A program made the translations under genes and the position numbers. The notes under the pieces are model-generated. The model was not told where the DNA came from. It did not search any database and was given only the letters and a program-made list of their open reading frames with translations. Below, in pieces: positions 32,438 to 39,019 of a stretch of 64,000 bases of DNA; position 1 is the stretch's first letter; each line of letters starts with the position of its first letter. The stretch is from assembly GCF_044324875.1 (NCBI RefSeq), contig NZ_CP172185.1, one strand, 5' to 3'. The DNA is from Escherichia coli. Lineage in GTDB: Bacteria; Pseudomonadota; Gammaproteobacteria; Enterobacterales; Enterobacteriaceae.

Positions 32438-33190
32438 TCACTGAGCTGTAATCAATGTACAGCGCTGTACCGGGCGATGGGTAATACCGGTCACAACCGG
32501 TAACCCCAGAGACAATGCAACTGTTTTTAACGCAATATACTGGCCGGATGTATCACCCCGGGCAGCCTGAAAACACCTTTCCACCCGGCATTGTCCGTCA
32601 GCACTTATCACCCGCCATGTCTGTTGCAATAAATCCACCCGTTGCGAACATTCTTCATCAACCGTGGCACTGACCCGTGGATGGCAAATGCTCGTCTGGC
32701 TGAGCAGCAACAGGCATCGCATTGTTGCTCCTCCATGTTGTTCCCGCAACCAGCGTAATACCACCGGTGGTGCTGGACTGGCCGTGTGATTACGTTCAGT
32801 AATACGCTCGTGCACCTGTCGGTAAAAGGAAGTACAGAATGCATGAATCTGTTGTCCGTTGATGTTTCCTTCTGCCGAATGGAGTGTGAAGTGGACGGCC
32901 AGCAGACGCGGCCAGTGATCCACCGCCTGCTGAATAAAACGCCGGATTTCCACCGGCTCTGAAAGTACGGTTTCGGTTATTTGCACGATTTGATCCCCTT
33001 GAATGTTGCTGAACCGGTGTCGGTACGCAGGAAAGCACGCCGAGACCGGTACGATGCCTGTTACAGCGAAGAACGAGGAATGACAGACGGGGGCAGCAGG
33101 TCGCCAGCACCAGGGACAGGGCTGATTTCCACAATACCAACGCTGGTATTTTGCACATTGCCAGCGTACCGGCATTACAACACGTTTCAT
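32438..33190 (-). CDS. Island protein, possibly YfjJ/YagK (inovirus Gp2-like) family
   Basis: Start taken at MKRVVMPV (ATG 33188-33190), overlapping the alpA stop as ATGA; DHWPRLLAVHFTLHSAEG resembles the YfjJ-family core. Confidence 0.4.
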   Translation of the reverse strand: MKRVVMPVRWQCAKYQRWYCGNQPCPWCWRPAAPVCHSSFFAVTGIVPVSACFPAYRHRFSNIQGDQIVQITETVLSEPVEIRRFIQQAVDHWPRLLAVHFTLHSAEGNINGQQIHAFCTSFYRQVHERITERNHTASPAPPVVLRWLREQHGGATMRCLLLLSQTSICHPRVSATVDEECSQRVDLLQQTWRVISADGQCRVERCFQAARGDTSGQYIALKTVALSLGLPVVTGITHRPVQRCTLITAQ

Positions 33191-33423
33191 GCGGCGACTC
33201 CCCGTGATGCTTCGATGCGCTGCTGCATCCACTGCTCCACTTCGCTTCTGTACCAGCGGCTGCTGCGGCCCAGTTTGATGGGTTTAGGGAAATGGCCTTC
33301 ACTGATCAGCTTGTAAAACCATTTGTCGGTCATACCAGTGAAGCTGGTGATGTAGTTCATGTCGATCAGGGGATCGTCGGCACGCAGCAATACGCTGTCG
33401 TGACCTGTCATTGAGGTCAACAT
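33187..33423 (-). CDS. alpA: AlpA-family phage/island regulatory protein (excisionase-like HTH)
   Basis: 78 aa; LIDMNYITSFTGMTDKWFYKLISEGHFPKPIKLGRSSRWYRSEVEQWM matches the AlpA/MerR-type HTH pattern. Confidence 0.75.
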   Translation of the reverse strand: MLTSMTGHDSVLLRADDPLIDMNYITSFTGMTDKWFYKLISEGHFPKPIKLGRSSRWYRSEVEQWMQQRIEASRGVAA

Positions 33424-33491: not shown

Positions 33492-34064
33492 TCAGAGCTG
33501 GCCTGCTACGGGATACCAGGGATTACCGGCGAGGTAACGGGCTTCCGGATCGCGCACACCACGACGATCGCGGGCGAAATCACTGAACGCCCATATCAGC
33601 TCTTTGAGTCTCTCTTCGCAGTCCGGTGAACGGGGATCCAGCAGCACATCCCGGGTAATCTGCTTCTGGTACGGTGCCGCTTCACCCGGTGACGCGAAGC
33701 CCAGTACGTTGCTCCAGGCATCCAGAATCAGCCGATCCAGTTCAGGGCCGTCGAAATATTCCTCCCTGACGCACAGCACCACGTGGTATTCCGGTTTTTC
33801 AGGATGACGAGTCAGGAGCCAGCAGAGATCACGTCCGGGGGTTGCATTCATCAGCGCACTGACGGTTTCGATAAAGGCCATACCGAACCAGGTTTTTCTG
33901 TCGCTGAAGATGTTGCCATGTTCCCCCGGCAGACGAAGCAGGATCCGCCGTATTCGGGAGCAGGGCTGCTCACGCAGCGCACGCTCAAGGACACCGATAA
34001 CTTTGCTCTGATAAGATGGCCAGAAGGGCGCCATGCTATAGTCGAAATAAGGGATAGCATTCAT
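33492..34064 (-). CDS. Island hypothetical protein, distantly YfjJ/YagK-like
   Basis: Start taken at MNAIPYFDY (ATG 34062-34064; track start is TTG); RIRRILLRLPGEHGN and YHVVLCVREEY segments. Confidence 0.4.
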   Translation of the reverse strand: MNAIPYFDYSMAPFWPSYQSKVIGVLERALREQPCSRIRRILLRLPGEHGNIFSDRKTWFGMAFIETVSALMNATPGRDLCWLLTRHPEKPEYHVVLCVREEYFDGPELDRLILDAWSNVLGFASPGEAAPYQKQITRDVLLDPRSPDCEERLKELIWAFSDFARDRRGVRDPEARYLAGNPWYPVAGQL

Positions 34065-34420
34065 AAGATATGTTCCGTTATACGCAGCCCACAACGCGTC
34101 CTGCCCGTGGATGCGCTGACGTGTTATGGCTTGCGTATGGGGTTGATGGAATAAGTGAAAAACCGCGGCAGAACGGGAAGATCAGGTAACCGACAAGGGA
34201 CAGAACACCGGATGCAGGTTCAGAATGAATGATCTCCGTTGACTTCGGTTCACATCATTAAGCAGGACAGTAAGGTTTTACCGACGGAGTGTTTCCAGGA
34301 GCGAAAGCAGAGAAAAATACCGTTGCATGACTTCAGGACGACTTTTTCAGAAAACGAGCTAAGGGCGTCAGCCAACGTCCTGTAGCATAAGCTCAGGCAC
34401 CGGATGTCGTTTTACAGGGC

Positions 34421-35152
34421 TCACCTGCCATCCAGTAGACGCCCCGGCCCACGACTGCAACCATAATTACGTTGCCCGGAACCGTTATGCAACTTCGTTT
34501 CATATTTCACGAGATAACTGGCTCTGTTCCGGGCTTTCTGCATCGCTTCCACATCACCACGCTTGACCCAGAGCACAGCGGATTCACCCGGCTTTTTGTC
34601 TGAAGCCTTCCTGGTATCAGAACATCCACCCGACAAAGGCGTATCATCGGAAGAAGGGCGAGCATCAGATGATGTCGGTTTACGGAAAGGCGTCCGCCTG
34701 GAAAAATGAACCAGTCCATTACCCTGCCAGGGCTCAAGATGCAGAGCACTACACCATGCCAGCTTGATCAGTGTCGCCAGCGAAGAAGGAACGGTGAAAT
34801 CCCCTGGCGAGCACCAGGTATCTTTGTTGAGCAGCAATATCACGTGATAATGTTTCCTGCCTTTTTCCTTGCCAAACTCCCGGCACCAGAAATAACGCAG
34901 AGTGGTTGCACGCACACGCTTGTTGGCACGTCGTTTTTTCCGCTGGTAAGCCTGAATTTTGGCTTTCAGGGATGCAAAAAAACGAGAAATCACCGCTGAA
35001 TCCGGATCGGGATCCATGATGGTGACAGGCATATACTCAGGGAAACGTAAATCCACCCGGATTAACGAGACGGCACGGTGCTGCGCCAGGGCACTGTCGA
35101 GAAGGCTGTCAAAACGGGATAACCAGTAAGCATTATGTATTGGTTGATTCAT
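34421..35152 (-). CDS. YfjJ/YagK-family (inovirus Gp2-like) island protein
   Basis: 243 aa, ATG 35150-35152; AVSLIRVDLRFPEYMP, RKHYHVILLLNKDTW. Confidence 0.6.
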   Translation of the reverse strand: MNQPIHNAYWLSRFDSLLDSALAQHRAVSLIRVDLRFPEYMPVTIMDPDPDSAVISRFFASLKAKIQAYQRKKRRANKRVRATTLRYFWCREFGKEKGRKHYHVILLLNKDTWCSPGDFTVPSSLATLIKLAWCSALHLEPWQGNGLVHFSRRTPFRKPTSSDARPSSDDTPLSGGCSDTRKASDKKPGESAVLWVKRGDVEAMQKARNRASYLVKYETKLHNGSGQRNYGCSRGPGRLLDGR

Positions 35153-36191
35153 GATGAGAGATCTCCGTTGATTTGGATTGACTTCACATCATTAATCACC
35201 GCAGTAAAACTTTACGGCGTCCTGTCATTAAGCAACACCAGTGGCTCCTGATTAGAACAGAATGAGTTTCCCACGAACAAAAAGACAAACCTACACGCAG
35301 GGTAAAAACACGCAACAACAGCATGAATGGATTTGAAAACAATATGGATGACGAAAAATGTCAAAAGTGAAACGGATCAACAGAACGTGCAAACAAAACG
35401 TCAGAAACGCAATCAGAGCACTTTCTGGCGCTGTGAATCAACAACAACACCAAAACCTACAGCTTAACCACATTACTCAATCACGAATGCGAATGACACG
35501 TTTAAAACCTGTTTACAGATAACGCCGTAACACGATCATCCCCATCACCATCAGAATCGATTTTCTCATCCCGAAAATGTTACGTTTCACTACGCACCAT
35601 AAAAACGATTAACCATCGATAACGTAAATCTCATCTGAATCAAAAAACCAAAACCAATCATCACACTTTCGCAATGCAAGAAGAAAAACCACATCATGAC
35701 GAAAACAATGACCTTACATGAAAAAGCAAAACGTCAGGAATCGTTAATGCCTCAATCTGATTGTTATCAAAACATCCAGAAAGTCGTTTAACAGAATCGT
35801 CGTAAGCACATCGAAAAGAACGTCAGATCACCTCAGGAAAGTTCGGGTTGATTTAGCGTAAAGATACTTTTCTCAGCTTAACGTCGAAACACAAACCAAA
35901 AACCACAAACAACCAAAGCTCAGGAAAGGTTAAACGTCACATCAGTAAAATCGAATAGCAGATTGATTGCTTAAACAGAAAGGTTTTACAGCAGCTTTAA
36001 ACTGATTTTAGCTAACGTAAAGATTTACTAAACTGGATGAGTTTCAGACAAAGCAATGTGTACAGCAATGCTTAATGAAAACACTTATAGGGCTGTTTAT
36101 GAAAACACGTGTATGTCTGGTAAAACACTTAGTAGAAAATACGTGTATAACACTTACTGAAATGCTTAGTAAAAATACTTAGTAAAATATG
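35153..36191. other. About 1 kb ORF-free, strongly A/C-skewed tract with short recurring motifs
   Basis: No track ORF of 60 aa or more on any frame; motifs aacgtcag (4 or more) and acgtaaa; dense acacttag/acacttac/tacttag plus acgtgtat repeats at 36100-36190 continuing after the IS2. Confidence 0.5.
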
Positions 36192-36282
36192 TAGACTGGC
36201 CCCCTGAATCTCCAGACAACCAGTATCACTTAAATAAGTGATAGTCTTAATACTAGTTTTTAGACTAGTCATTGGAGAACAG

Positions 36283-36648
36283 ATGATTGATGTCTTAGGG
36301 CCGGAGAAACGCAGACGGCGTACCACACAGGAAAAGATCGCAATTGTTCAGCAGAGCTTTGAACCGGGGATGACGGTCTCCCTCGTTGCCCGGCAACATG
36401 GTGTAGCAGCCAGCCAGTTATTTCTCTGGCGTAAGCAATACCAGGAAGGAAGTCTTACTGCTGTCGCCGCCGGAGAACAGGTTGTTCCTGCCTCTGAACT
36501 TGCTGCCGCCATGAAGCAGATTAAAGAACTCCAGCGCCTGCTCGGCAAGAAAACGATGGAAAATGAACTCCTCAAAGAAGCCGTTGAATATGGACGGGCA
36601 AAAAAGTGGATAGCGCACGCGCCCTTATTGCCCGGGGATGGGGAGTAA
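36283..36648 (+). CDS. insC: IS2 transposase OrfA (InsC)
   Basis: Identical translation to 8401-8766. Confidence 0.9.
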
Positions 36649-37511
36649 GCTTAGTCAGCCGTTGTCTCCGGGTGTCGCGTGCGCAGTTGCACGTCATTCT
36701 CAGACGAACCGATGACTGGATGGATGGCCGCCGCAGTCGTCACACTGATGATACGGATGTGCTTCTCCGTATACACCATGTTATCGGAGAGCTGCCAACG
36801 TATGGTTATCGTCGGGTATGGGCGCTGCTTCGCAGACAGGCAGAACTTGATGGTATGCCTGCGATCAATGCCAAACGTGTTTACCGGATCATGCGCCAGA
36901 ATGCGCTGTTGCTTGAGCGAAAACCTGCTGTACCGCCATCGAAACGGGCACATACAGGCAGAGTGGCTGTGAAAGAAAGTAATCAGCGATGGTGCTCTGA
37001 CGGGTTCGAGTTCCGCTGTGATAACGGAGAAAAACTGCGAGTCACGTTCGCGCTGGACTGCTGTGACCGTGAGGCACTGCACTGGGCGGTCACTACGGGC
37101 GGCTTCAACAGTGAAACAGTACAGGACGTCATGCTGGGAGCGGTGGAACGCCGCTTCGGCAACGAGCTTCCGGCGTCTCCAGTAGAGTGGCTGACGGATA
37201 ATGGTTCATGCTACCGGGCTAATGAAACACGGCAGTTTGCCCGGATGTTGGGGCTTGAACCGAAGAGCACGGCGGTGCGGAGTCCGGAGAGTAACGGCAT
37301 AGCAGAGAGCTTCGTGAAAACGATAAAGCGTGACTACATCAGTGTCATGCCCAAACCAGACGGGTTAACGGCAGCAAAGAACCTTGCAGAGGCGTTCGAG
37401 CATTATAACGAATGGCATCCGCATAGTGCACTGGGTTATCGCTCGCCACGGGAATATCTACGGCAGCAAGCCAGTAATGGGTTAAGTGATAACAGGTGTC
37501 TGGAAATATAG
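36606..37511 (+). CDS. insD: IS2 transposase OrfB (InsD)
   Basis: Identical translation to 8724-9629. Confidence 0.9.
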
Positions 37512-38227
37512 GGGCAAATCCAATATGTGTAGAATTATCTATTTAAAAAGATATGTATATAACACTTAATAAAAACATGTGTATATAGTATCATACCGAC
37601 ATTCTCAACATCTTCAGACTTCCATACATACTGGGTGTTGATTTCTCACTTTTACAGCCAGCATGGAGTTTTCTGTCCTAAAAACAGAGCAGATTTACTC
37701 TGGAATTATTTTTCTGCCCCCGTATTTCAGGCCCCAGAAAAGACAATCCGAAGCAAACCGTTTGTCAGCCTCCATATCATCTTTTACCCCCGGAAAGTGA
37801 TCGCGTTTTACAACCAGAATGACAGCCATACTGATTATGTCGTCTCCCGGCCCCCTTCACATATAACATGCATGTCTGTCATTGCTTACTGCTCCACATG
37901 ACCGGATTTCACATACAGGATGCACATTCAGTGTTTTTATCGCCACTATAACAGACAGATTACTGTCGTCTTTACTCTTCAGATTGTTAATCTGACCACA
38001 AGAACAGCCGAACGGCAAAACGCCCTCCACAAGGGGCACATGAACCATAGTTGATAGCATGTTTTTCCTAATCAAGGAATAGTTCAGGAATATTTTATTG
38101 CATTAATAACTGGCGAATAATCGTTCTGTGAACACAAAATGCTTTTATTTGTAAATTTTATTGCATTGCACTCGTTTTATTGATATGGGGTTTAATAACA
38201 GATAACCCGGAAAGAAGGAGAAAACAG

Positions 38228-39019
38228 ATGACATTACGGATTAACGATCAGGGGCGAGATAAACAGAATCAATTTTTATCGAAAAATGGAGAAAATCTGA
38301 ATTCGTTAAAATCGCGTCATGTGCAGGATAGGCATTTACCTGAATGGCTTAAGGATAAAGTTGCAGCATTCTGGTTTTGTCTGGTGATAAAGGATATGAA
38401 AGTGTCAGGGAGCAGTTACTATGAACTTACCATGCAACTTCCCACTTCTGAAGAATCTGTTTGCATCAGTAAGCTGTCATCCTCAACCCATGAGATTCGG
38501 CTGGAGATCATCAGGCGATGGATTGATAGTGTAGCACAGATAGAAACGGAAGCTTTTACTAAAAATCTCGTTGATGCCATCTATAAAAACTGGAAGGAAA
38601 TCGGGAACAAAAACCAGGCTACATGGCTTAAAAAAAATCCGGAACAACTCGAGTGGGCATGGAAATATATTAACATTCGTATTCCCGAGTCACATTTAAC
38701 CTGGTTTTGCCCCGTCAATAACGAAGAGAAACGCATTGCCATCTTAGCATTGCTTAAAATACTGTATCCCGGAGATATACCATGCCAGTACAACGACAAA
38801 GAGTTTCATGTCGGGATCTGCGCTGAAGAACATTTTTACAGAAGAATGCACGACGCTTTCAGAAAACAGTTTATCGACGGGAAAAAAGATAAACGGGTAC
38901 AAATTAACGTAAAGATATCACCGTCCGCAAAAAGCGCTCTGGACAGACTGACCAGAGCGAGGAAAACAACACAGCAGGCTATTCTGGAACAACTGATTCT
39001 GAACGGTAGACTGGATTAA
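38228..39019 (+). CDS. AT-rich orphan protein with C-terminal ribbon-helix-helix-like segment (function unknown)
   Basis: 263 aa from ATG 38228 with AAGGAG SD 7 nt upstream; C-terminus KRVQINVKISPSAKSALDRLTRARKTTQQAILEQLILNG has a strand-helix-helix pattern; no family recognised. Confidence 0.5.
   Translation: MTLRINDQGRDKQNQFLSKNGENLNSLKSRHVQDRHLPEWLKDKVAAFWFCLVIKDMKVSGSSYYELTMQLPTSEESVCISKLSSSTHEIRLEIIRRWIDSVAQIETEAFTKNLVDAIYKNWKEIGNKNQATWLKKNPEQLEWAWKYINIRIPESHLTWFCPVNNEEKRIAILALLKILYPGDIPCQYNDKEFHVGICAEEHFYRRMHDAFRKQFIDGKKDKRVQINVKISPSAKSALDRLTRARKTTQQAILEQLILNGRLD

Follow-up and report, generated by a model that had tools for sequence, protein, structure and literature searches.

A tandem repeat array and two conserved boxes beside a Rep-like gene of Escherichia coli islands: a candidate control region with an expandable spacer

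The 64,000-nucleotide stretch of Escherichia coli DNA considered here, hereafter called the window, carries an island in which the start codon of a yfjJ-like gene is separated by 3075 bp from the next substantial gene (38228, plus strand). This intergenic region harbors an array of short tandem repeats followed by two conserved sequences, Box 1 and Box 2, which are inherited together with the yfjJ-like gene as a cassette of about 2 kb. We put at roughly one half the probability that the array and the boxes form a protein-bound transcriptional control region between divergent island modules, set apart from the yfjJ-like gene by an expandable spacer. The anatomy of the region, its conservation and the boundaries of the cassette were read from comparisons of homologous loci, and both a coding signal and RNA structure were found to be lacking. 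A repeat array and a promoter beside a Rep-like gene are of a familiar kind, and the sites themselves are newly described; no literature or annotation describing the tract, the array or the boxes was found, including under yfjJ, yagK and 'inovirus Gp2'. The features are as follows, in window coordinates.

34421-35152, minus strand: gene of the YfjJ/YagK family ('inovirus Gp2') for an HUH Rep-like protein of 243 residues, left member of the cassette.
35153-35230: gene-proximal leader or operator, highly conserved, with the near-palindrome TCATTAATCA at 35189-35198.
35231-36052, plus strand: A/C-skewed, G-poor, non-coding spacer.
36053-36191, plus strand: left part of the repeat array, about 9.5 units, T-type AAAAYRCTTAGTA and G-type AAAAYAYGTGTAT.
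36187-36191: left copy of the 5-bp target-site duplication ATATG that flanks the insertion sequence.
36192-37522, plus strand: IS2-type insertion sequence (IS) of the IS3 family, 1331 bp, with two overlapping transposase open reading frames (ORFs).
37523-37527: right copy of the 5-bp target-site duplication ATATG.
37528-37583, plus strand: right part of the repeat array, the remainder of the split G-type unit and three more units.
37584-37601, plus strand: Box 1, TATAGTATCATACCGACA, a sigma-70 -10-like hexamer and conserved start region, pointing rightward.
37602-37696, plus strand: stretch between the boxes, its start conserved (TTCTCAACATCTTCAGAC) and its middle variable.
37697-37709, plus strand: Box 2, ACTCTGGAATTAT, an imperfect palindrome at the right end of the cassette.
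37710-38227: variable right-hand intergenic part, outside the cassette, which goes with the downstream cargo genes.

In this strain the array is interrupted by the insertion sequence. Its size of about 1.33 kb, its two overlapping transposase frames (36238-36648 and 36606-37511 in the ORF list) and its presence in multiple copies identify it as such; its fully identical (100%) copies carry the annotation IS3 family transposase, and 4845 of 5426 complete E. coli genomes contain a match to it. It is flanked by a 5-bp duplication, and an empty site exists: when the element and one ATATG are deleted in silico, the remaining 1739 bp are 100% identical to the allele of E. coli GF43 (L001:9001-10739), by which both the insertion and its target are proven. 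IS2 interrupts the fourth G-type unit, and the empty-site allele, together with the presence of the array on both sides of the element, bears out the proposal of the initial annotation that IS2 had landed within a repeat array. The insertion is recent, as it is missing from the otherwise identical allele and its exact junction has no contiguous match across the 5426 complete genomes. In several other E. coli genomes an IS2 end is found within a few hundred bp of array-like sequence (matches H76-H81), and the array region may be a recurrent target of this element.

On the IS-free allele, the array comprises 13 A-rich units of 12-13 bp, about 200 bp in total, in which seven T-type and six G-type units are interleaved. 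The sequence AAAAYAYKT is common to all of them; the units share an AAAACAC-type half-site and many have dyad symmetry, the cores TACT-T-AGTA and ACAC-GTGT being symmetric by eye. A AAACACTT-N4-AAGTGTTT dyad was likewise recognized by eye in most E. coli alleles. Tandem Repeats Finder reports a period of 13 with 5.2 copies (score 53), and Fourier analysis a period of 12.6 nucleotides at eight times the mean power. Relative to dinucleotide shuffles the array motifs are about 100-fold over expectation, the pattern A[CT][AG]CTTA[ACG]T for instance being observed five times against 0.05 expected, and the repeats noted initially on both sides of IS2 are thereby confirmed. The same motif statistics place the array far beyond chance but not the A-rich tract to its left, where the most frequent k-mers are no more numerous than in shuffled sequence. 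Of the scattered motifs reported there, aacgtcag (AACGTCAG), claimed in at least four copies, occurs only three times (35397, 35730 and 35819) and ACGTAAA, claimed in several, only twice; both are poorly conserved in homologues. The copy number of the array varies among homologues, with 117-236 nucleotides between anchors, and its motifs occur nowhere else in the 64-kb window. In several genera it occupies an unchanged place with respect to two conserved boxes, which makes it very likely a protein-binding site.

For measures of conservation, 42 distinct copies were assembled from E. coli records and one metagenome scan. Box 1, which has the array directly upstream, shows an identity of 0.927 over 37 E. 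coli copies, compared with 0.879 for the four-fold degenerate sites in the neighboring gene. Its hexamer is TATAGT, TATATT or TATAAT and lies at a fixed distance, about 7 nucleotides, before a conserved C(C/A)GACA. A promoter scan returned TTAATA-17-TATCAT at L001 10078-10106, which corresponds to window positions 37566-37594. The initial annotation had ended its feature at 37600 and so cut through Box 1, the most conserved box, which extends to 37601. The stretch between the boxes falls in identity within E. coli from 0.893 at its beginning to 0.754 in its middle; consensus folding of this stretch as RNA gave -3.5 kcal/mol, with zero compensatory pairs and no covariation. Box 2 then reaches 0.939 within E. 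coli, against the same 0.879 at four-fold sites, before identity drops to 0.528 in the right flank. It lies 95 nucleotides after Box 1 in E. coli, and 71-73 nucleotides after it in the loci L100, L101 and L104. Box 1 and Box 2 are thus conserved above the neutral level, and a -10-like element stands at a conserved position between divergent modules. Dyad symmetry of the kind expected of sites bound by dimers is seen in Box 2 and in the cores of the array units.

The possibility that a small RNA extends from Box 1 as far as the U-run that follows Box 2 was considered and rejected, no conserved hairpin or covariation having been found; the terminator-like hairpin at 37685-37702 is not retained in all alleles. 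A 44-residue minus-strand ORF (37695-37829) ends within this hairpin, which a T-run follows; the ORF is frameshifted in L006.

In E. coli the unit of inheritance is well defined. The tract is present in 1878 of the 5426 complete genomes (about 35%), in a median of two and at most eight places per genome, which amounts to roughly 3270 copies, and its copies are mostly 80-90% identical. On the left, homology stops 35-100 nucleotides past the stop codon of the yfjJ-like gene; on the right its exact limit is the end of ACTCTGGAATTAT(TT), beyond which at least five unrelated flanks follow, homology breaking off in the right-hand intergenic part near query positions 1230 and 1577. The cassette so bounded is about 2.05 kb long and contains the gene, the spacer, the array, Box 1, about 95 nucleotides and Box 2. 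Annotation under the tract is usually absent among the E. coli matches listed and is at most 'hypothetical protein'. Since K-12 carries no copy of the tract, its transcriptome annotation is of no help here. A plasmid collection yielded only four E. coli matches, none to a named gene, and the phage, plasmid and viral collections as a whole an unverified 4.5-kb contig, a few E. coli plasmids and one IMG/VR contig, which are uninformative.

The layout is retained well beyond E. coli. It is kept by the homologues from Providencia, Brenneria, Jinshanibacter and unassigned metagenomic contigs, which are listed at 36-42% identity, and by a more distant one from Aeromonas: the yfjJ-like gene diverges from a hypothetical gene or a GTPase gene, which is followed by DUF932, antirestriction and RadC genes, and each of the cross-genus loci examined has alpA next to the yfjJ-like gene or not far from it. 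Both boxes survive across genera, 71-95 nucleotides apart, while the rest of the intergenic region has diverged. Across genera Box 1 reads TATA(T/G)TA..A..C(C/A)GACA and Box 2 ACTCTGGA(A/G)TTAT. Box 1 is recognizable in Providencia, Brenneria, Aeromonas, Jinshanibacter, L100, L101 and L104; Box 2 is found in Providencia, where it is a 7-2-7 palindrome (ATAACTC-TG-GAGTTAT), and with mismatches in Brenneria and Aeromonas. The Providencia GTPase gene begins some 190 nucleotides beyond Box 1, with nothing in between. Of nine lineages, six have repeats immediately 5' of Box 1, namely E. coli, Providencia, Jinshanibacter, Aeromonas, L101 and L105. Those of Providencia consist of AAACACATA three times over and those of Jinshanibacter of five 37-nucleotide units with TAACACTC, and an AACAC core is enriched in the repeats of these two genera and of E. 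coli. In Aeromonas sobria (L034), a 66-nucleotide direct repeat about 130 nucleotides upstream of Box 1 repeats the stretch that runs up to Box 1; L101 has three ACTCTCT copies, and L105 has a long palindrome with both GTGTAT and ACTTAG.

These observations favor a model in which two divergent island modules would be controlled from the array, Box 1 and Box 2 that lie between them. One module is formed by the yfjJ-like gene with alpA, the other by the GTPase, DUF932, antirestriction, RadC and toxin-antitoxin genes of CP4-57-type islands. This arrangement is preferred because the -10-like Box 1 keeps a fixed distance and because Box 2 and the array units have dimer-type symmetry. The promoter activity, the binding protein and the regulatory logic of the model are proposals built on these features. 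Box 1 would drive rightward transcription, and the array may serve as a multi-site landing pad for an island-encoded DNA-binding protein, candidates for which are the adjacent HUH protein and the small protein of the AlpA/Xis family. Box 2 would be an operator that marks the end of the module, beyond which cargo genes are exchanged. The long spacer would act as an expandable distance between the gene and the control region, most of its positions having no sequence-specific function. In the strain studied here, IS2 separates about 9.5 units from Box 1 and would have uncoupled most of the array from the putative promoter. AlpA was also considered as a processive antiterminator, and this idea was discarded: on our reading, the AlpA of P. 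aeruginosa is of the 21Q-like type, is larger, and differs from the PF05930 AlpA of this island.

Several points weigh against this model. The promoter calls are no more than matches to a consensus. A spacer devoid of function would be unusual in bacteria, and neutral evolution leaves the extreme skew of the tract (A 42%, G 15%) unaccounted for; the short intergenic region of Providencia is likewise poor in G (G 0.07), which hints at some strand-specific constraint. A lag-25 autocorrelation is moreover detectable over 35212-36102 (tract positions 60-950), with a z of 4.2 relative to dinucleotide shuffles, and 25 is twice the array period. Finally, the HUH gene is the only gene co-inherited with the array and the boxes, a pattern that would fit a pair of Rep protein and origin at least as well as a purely transcriptional operator.

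The product of the HUH gene bears on the main competing explanation. The 243-residue protein matches Pfam YagK_YfjJ_C (3e-35) and REP_ORF2-G2P (1.3e-8) as well as PHROG replication-initiation families, and it is about 30% identical to YfjJ and YagK of K-12. R32-x-D34 and Y213..K216..K220 do not vary in 28 homologues with identities as low as 23%, and at least 90% of these have H101-Y-H103. A metal-binding motif, a catalytic tyrosine motif and a nuclease fold are thus all recognizable, and the nearest structural matches are the nickase and origin-binding domains of Rep/NS1 proteins and RepB. As predicted from these comparisons, the YfjJ/Gp2 family has the fold and the motifs of the HUH nicking enzymes that start rolling-circle replication.

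HUH proteins of the Rep type bind tandem direct repeats near their nick sites. The array could accordingly be read as iterons for the YfjJ-like Rep protein within an origin of replication or transfer, with Box 2 or Box 1 as the nick or termination site; the excised island would then replicate or be mobilized by a rolling-circle mechanism, and the cargo would change at Box 2 where strand transfer starts or ends. The motifs, fold and structural matches of the adjacent gene speak for this reading, as do the co-inheritance of that gene alone with the array and boxes in a 2-kb cassette, the repeat units that differ between genera while their position is kept, the variable copy number of the array and the sharp homology boundary immediately after Box 2. 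The 13 units, phased at about 12.6 bp, are indeed more than the three direct repeats beside an initiator gene that characterize iterons, and they share a cassette with the HUH gene. However, neither a hairpin nick site nor DnaA boxes with an AT-rich unwinding element were found: the folds of the array and of the box region as single-stranded DNA are not significant (z from -1.34 to +0.40), and the tract contains no perfect DnaA box TGTGNAWAA, the G-type units matching 8 of its 9 positions by eye. The 7-2-7 palindrome of Box 2 in Providencia suits a dimeric double-strand binder better than a nick site in a loop, and Box 1 resembles a -10 element. The codon positions 1, 2 and 3 of the gene are conserved at 0.924, 0.945 and 0.886, which suggests weak constraint, and for islands of this kind, larger than 60 kb, no replication or natural oriT is documented in the literature found. 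On balance, an origin of replication or transfer is possible, and is regarded as a tentative second choice. The narrower claim that the cassette of about 2 kb is a working rolling-circle origin for excised islands of the CP4-57 or pathogenicity island type, with Box 2 as the nick or termination site, appears unlikely, even though it would explain why unrelated cargo starts exactly at Box 2, as in one-ended capture by IS91/ISCR elements or in oriT transfer. Rep proteins often autoregulate through their iterons, and for that reason the origin and the control region are not mutually exclusive.

Among known systems, close ones are the Rep-iteron origins of HUH initiators, which include the 'bind' direct repeats of pMV158 RepB, the elements recognized by parvovirus Rep/NS1 and the iterons of geminiviruses and CRESS viruses. 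The cassette resembles them in that a gene for an initiator-like protein of HUH fold, whose structural matches are these very proteins, stands beside short tandem direct repeats of lineage-specific sequence, with a second conserved site about 80-100 nucleotides from the repeats. In contrast to these systems, it has no detectable hairpin or nonanucleotide-type nick site, the rep-like gene and the array lie about 0.9 kb apart, and the host is a chromosomal island of more than 60 kb rather than a small replicon.

A parallel for the control region is found in the Pf4 prophage. There the replication-initiator gene PA0727 is activated by the excisionase XisF4, which binds to its promoter region, and the AT-rich promoter of the excisionase gene is subject to silencing of the H-NS type (PMC7379572). 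In both cases a small DNA-binding protein of the AlpA/Xis family is paired with an initiator gene of the inovirus Gp2 type. Nevertheless, the island that carries the pair here is large and lacks phage structural genes, nothing comparable to the array or to Boxes 1 and 2 has been described for Pf4, and binding of the regulator upstream of the initiator is experimental in Pf4 whereas the E. coli pair is known from its sequence. The islands integrated at the transfer-messenger RNA gene in Pseudomonas, which are transduced by a jumbo phage, have intY, alpA, RadC and an inovirus Gp2-like gene as their core (bioRxiv 10.1101/2024.08.29.610337). This set of integrase, AlpA, Gp2-like protein and RadC is the same as in the E. 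coli islands, but no non-coding array or boxes have been described for those of Pseudomonas.

Arrays bound by recombination directionality factors are also known, such as X1-X1.5-X2 of lambda Xis and the Cox boxes of P2, which are located at att sites or at the early-promoter switch. Xis and Cox are small winged-helix proteins that bind cooperatively and also regulate promoters. The array shares with theirs a head-to-tail arrangement and a period of about 10-13 bp, a likeness that is offered as a lead; it differs from them in its position 11 kb from the island end and in having 13 units of two types, and similarity in sequence is not established. That the array might be a partition centromere, or a set of arm-type sites for a recombinase or excisionase, was among the options first proposed for it. 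Tandem short repeats of about 13 bp and the presence of an AlpA/Xis-family gene in the island are in keeping with this idea. However, no parA- or parB-type gene is found in the annotated neighborhood, as would befit a partition site, and as to arm sites, there is no att site or integrase nearby, the island end lies about 11 kb to the right and the motifs are absent from the rest of the window. A partition or recombinase function is thus most improbable. Of the functions initially envisaged for the region, partition and recombinase arm sites are unsupported, a structured leader is contradicted, and an origin keeps its place as a possibility.

The long tract between the gene and the array is of a different nature. 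Immediately upstream of the gene, positions 35153-35230 have a mean pairwise identity of 0.91-0.99 over the 42 copies, compared with 0.88 at four-fold sites, and a TTTTA(A)CTGCG..ATTAAT core in this leader is common to Providencia by eye. Beyond it, over 35250-35950, the plus strand contains 0.417 A, 0.235 C, 0.153 G and 0.195 T, compared with about 0.25 of each in the whole window, the AT skew reaching 0.42 and the GC skew -0.40; the strongly A-rich plus strand noted at the outset is thus a real property of the tract. So is its lack of ORFs of at least 60 residues in 35153-36191, the sole one (36129-36326, minus strand) being a chimera that runs into IS2, and the gene-free stretch amounts to 1739 bp once IS2 is removed. 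Ungapped columns of the spacer have a mean pairwise identity of 0.893, compared with 0.879 at the four-fold sites of the adjacent gene. Relatives have about 170-810 nucleotides between the start of the gene and Box 1, as opposed to 1096 in E. coli, which makes the long spacer a lineage-specific expansion; in the place of the skewed tract they have 250-800 nucleotides, and G-poverty is common only to the short Providencia region, other genera having no skew. The tract looks like a lineage-specific non-coding spacer, largely unconstrained and evolving near the synonymous rate, and this most eye-catching feature of the region is probably its least functional part. An origin of the spacer by decay of additional array units was discarded, as weight-matrix scans with both unit types found no excess over shuffles. 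A CACCAT hexamer microsatellite is present in the spacer (equivalent of 35528-35550) and is expanded by about 50 nucleotides in L006.

Should the tract be transcribed, it might be a long untranslated leader of the yfjJ-like gene, U/G-rich and C-poor and hence Rho-resistant, or else an A/C-rich plus-strand RNA acting as a Rho loading site or a protein sponge. The strong strand asymmetry, the conservation of the gene-adjacent sequence, the G-poverty of the Providencia intergenic region on the same strand and the occurrence of a frameshifted ProQ/FinO-family gene within the island can be cited in its favor. Against it, folding of the two tract strands gave z values of +0.96 and +1.82 relative to dinucleotide shuffles (20 each), and thus no better than chance; Rfam at E <=1 gave no match to the tract, and only one weak chance match inside the gene; and the stretch between the boxes shows no covariation. 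In addition, substitutions accumulate at a near-synonymous rate with frequent indels, the promoter scan found no conserved promoter for a 1-kb leader, and the skew is not seen in other genera. The long structured leader suggested in the initial annotation is contradicted by the folding, Rfam and covariation results, and an RNA function of either kind is judged very unlikely.

As a last alternative, the tract could be the remnant of a decayed protein-coding gene, given that an excess of A over T is typical of sense strands, that some E. coli alleles have a real plus-strand ORF of 176 residues here and that the (CACCAT)n stretch might be a former peptide repeat. A search for a known gene disrupted by frameshifts, by period-3, indel and six-frame family analyses, was nonetheless negative. 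The Fourier period-3 signal is absent (0.68 of the mean power, compared with 3.4 for the adjacent gene), indel lengths in the spacer (1, 2, 4, 5, 17, 21, 51 and others) are not multiples of three, and each frame contains 25-45 stop codons over the 1739-bp IS-free tract. Six-frame translations had no PHROG match and a single NCBIfam match at chance level (E 0.033), in line with the scant annotation of the E. coli and plasmid matches mentioned above. The 176-residue protein (WP_000778605.1; L106:3081-3611 and L107:3075-3605), encoded where tract positions 178-477 are replaced by 1155 nucleotides, is unrelated to the tract. A coding origin of the tract is accordingly hard to credit. By eye, the 176-residue product looks like a Myb/SANT-type DNA-binding protein, and it could be a cognate regulator.

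About one in three complete E. coli genomes carries the cassette, frequently more than once, and its hosts are pathogenicity and defense islands whose regulation and movement are still poorly understood. The array, Box 1 and Box 2 provide concrete DNA targets of 13-18 bp for the uncharacterized HUH proteins of the YfjJ/YagK (Gp2-like) type and for AlpA, and the boxes mark the exact point at which island cargo is exchanged. If the control-region model is correct, it identifies the switch of the antirestriction, RadC and toxin-antitoxin module, whereas an origin, if there is one, would supply the missing replication or mobilization function of these islands.

Two further genes of the neighborhood bear on the region.

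33187-33423, minus strand: gene for a small DNA-binding protein of the AlpA/Xis family, candidate array binder, annotated in RefSeq (GF43) and matching the PHROG 'excisionase and transcriptional regulator' at 8e-10.
38228-39019, plus strand: 263-residue cargo gene with a weak C-terminal ribbon-helix-helix match (Pfam RHH_1, E 0.065).

The 263-residue cargo protein has no PADLOC, NCBIfam or PHROG match, and its positional counterpart in L006 is annotated as RepB family; PADLOC returned zero matches for the neighboring cargo proteins. Just 5' of this gene, ATTTTATTGCATT occurs as an exact repeat at 38092-38104 and 38155-38167, 63 nucleotides apart, and in Brenneria four AAAATGTGT repeats are located upstream of the gene at the equivalent position. 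Over 37710-38000, conservation between L001 and L003 is much above that of the spacer. On the other side, a second copy of the leader and start region of the yfjJ-like gene (GATCTCCGTTGAC...CATCATTAAGC...) is present at 34215-34290, upstream of a 190-residue ORF (33492-34064), and looks like the remains of a duplicated gene start or like a shared operator. The ProQ/FinO-family gene of the island (31912-32420) is frameshifted in the identical GF43 allele.

Related E. coli islands carry a second HUH paralogue, of 188 residues, which also has a 1.5-kb gene-free A-rich upstream region (0.33-0.47 A); these regions (L005:799-2337 and L003:884-2479) are unrelated to the tract and have no tandem array. 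A long A-rich upstream tract was nevertheless rejected as a rule of the family, given that 26 distant homologues in other genera, from a scan of species representatives, mostly have short unskewed gaps, with an ORF of about 470 residues like K-12 yfjI most often found upstream. Lastly, the K-12 GTPase genes yfjP (L004:15560-15713) and ykfA (L008:10959-11120, minus strand) share a promoter-like TTGAAA-15-TATCAT upstream, followed just before the start codon by a strong terminator hairpin in an attenuator-like arrangement, and the TATCAT..TCTC..AACA of these genes resembles Box 1 and the sequence downstream of it.

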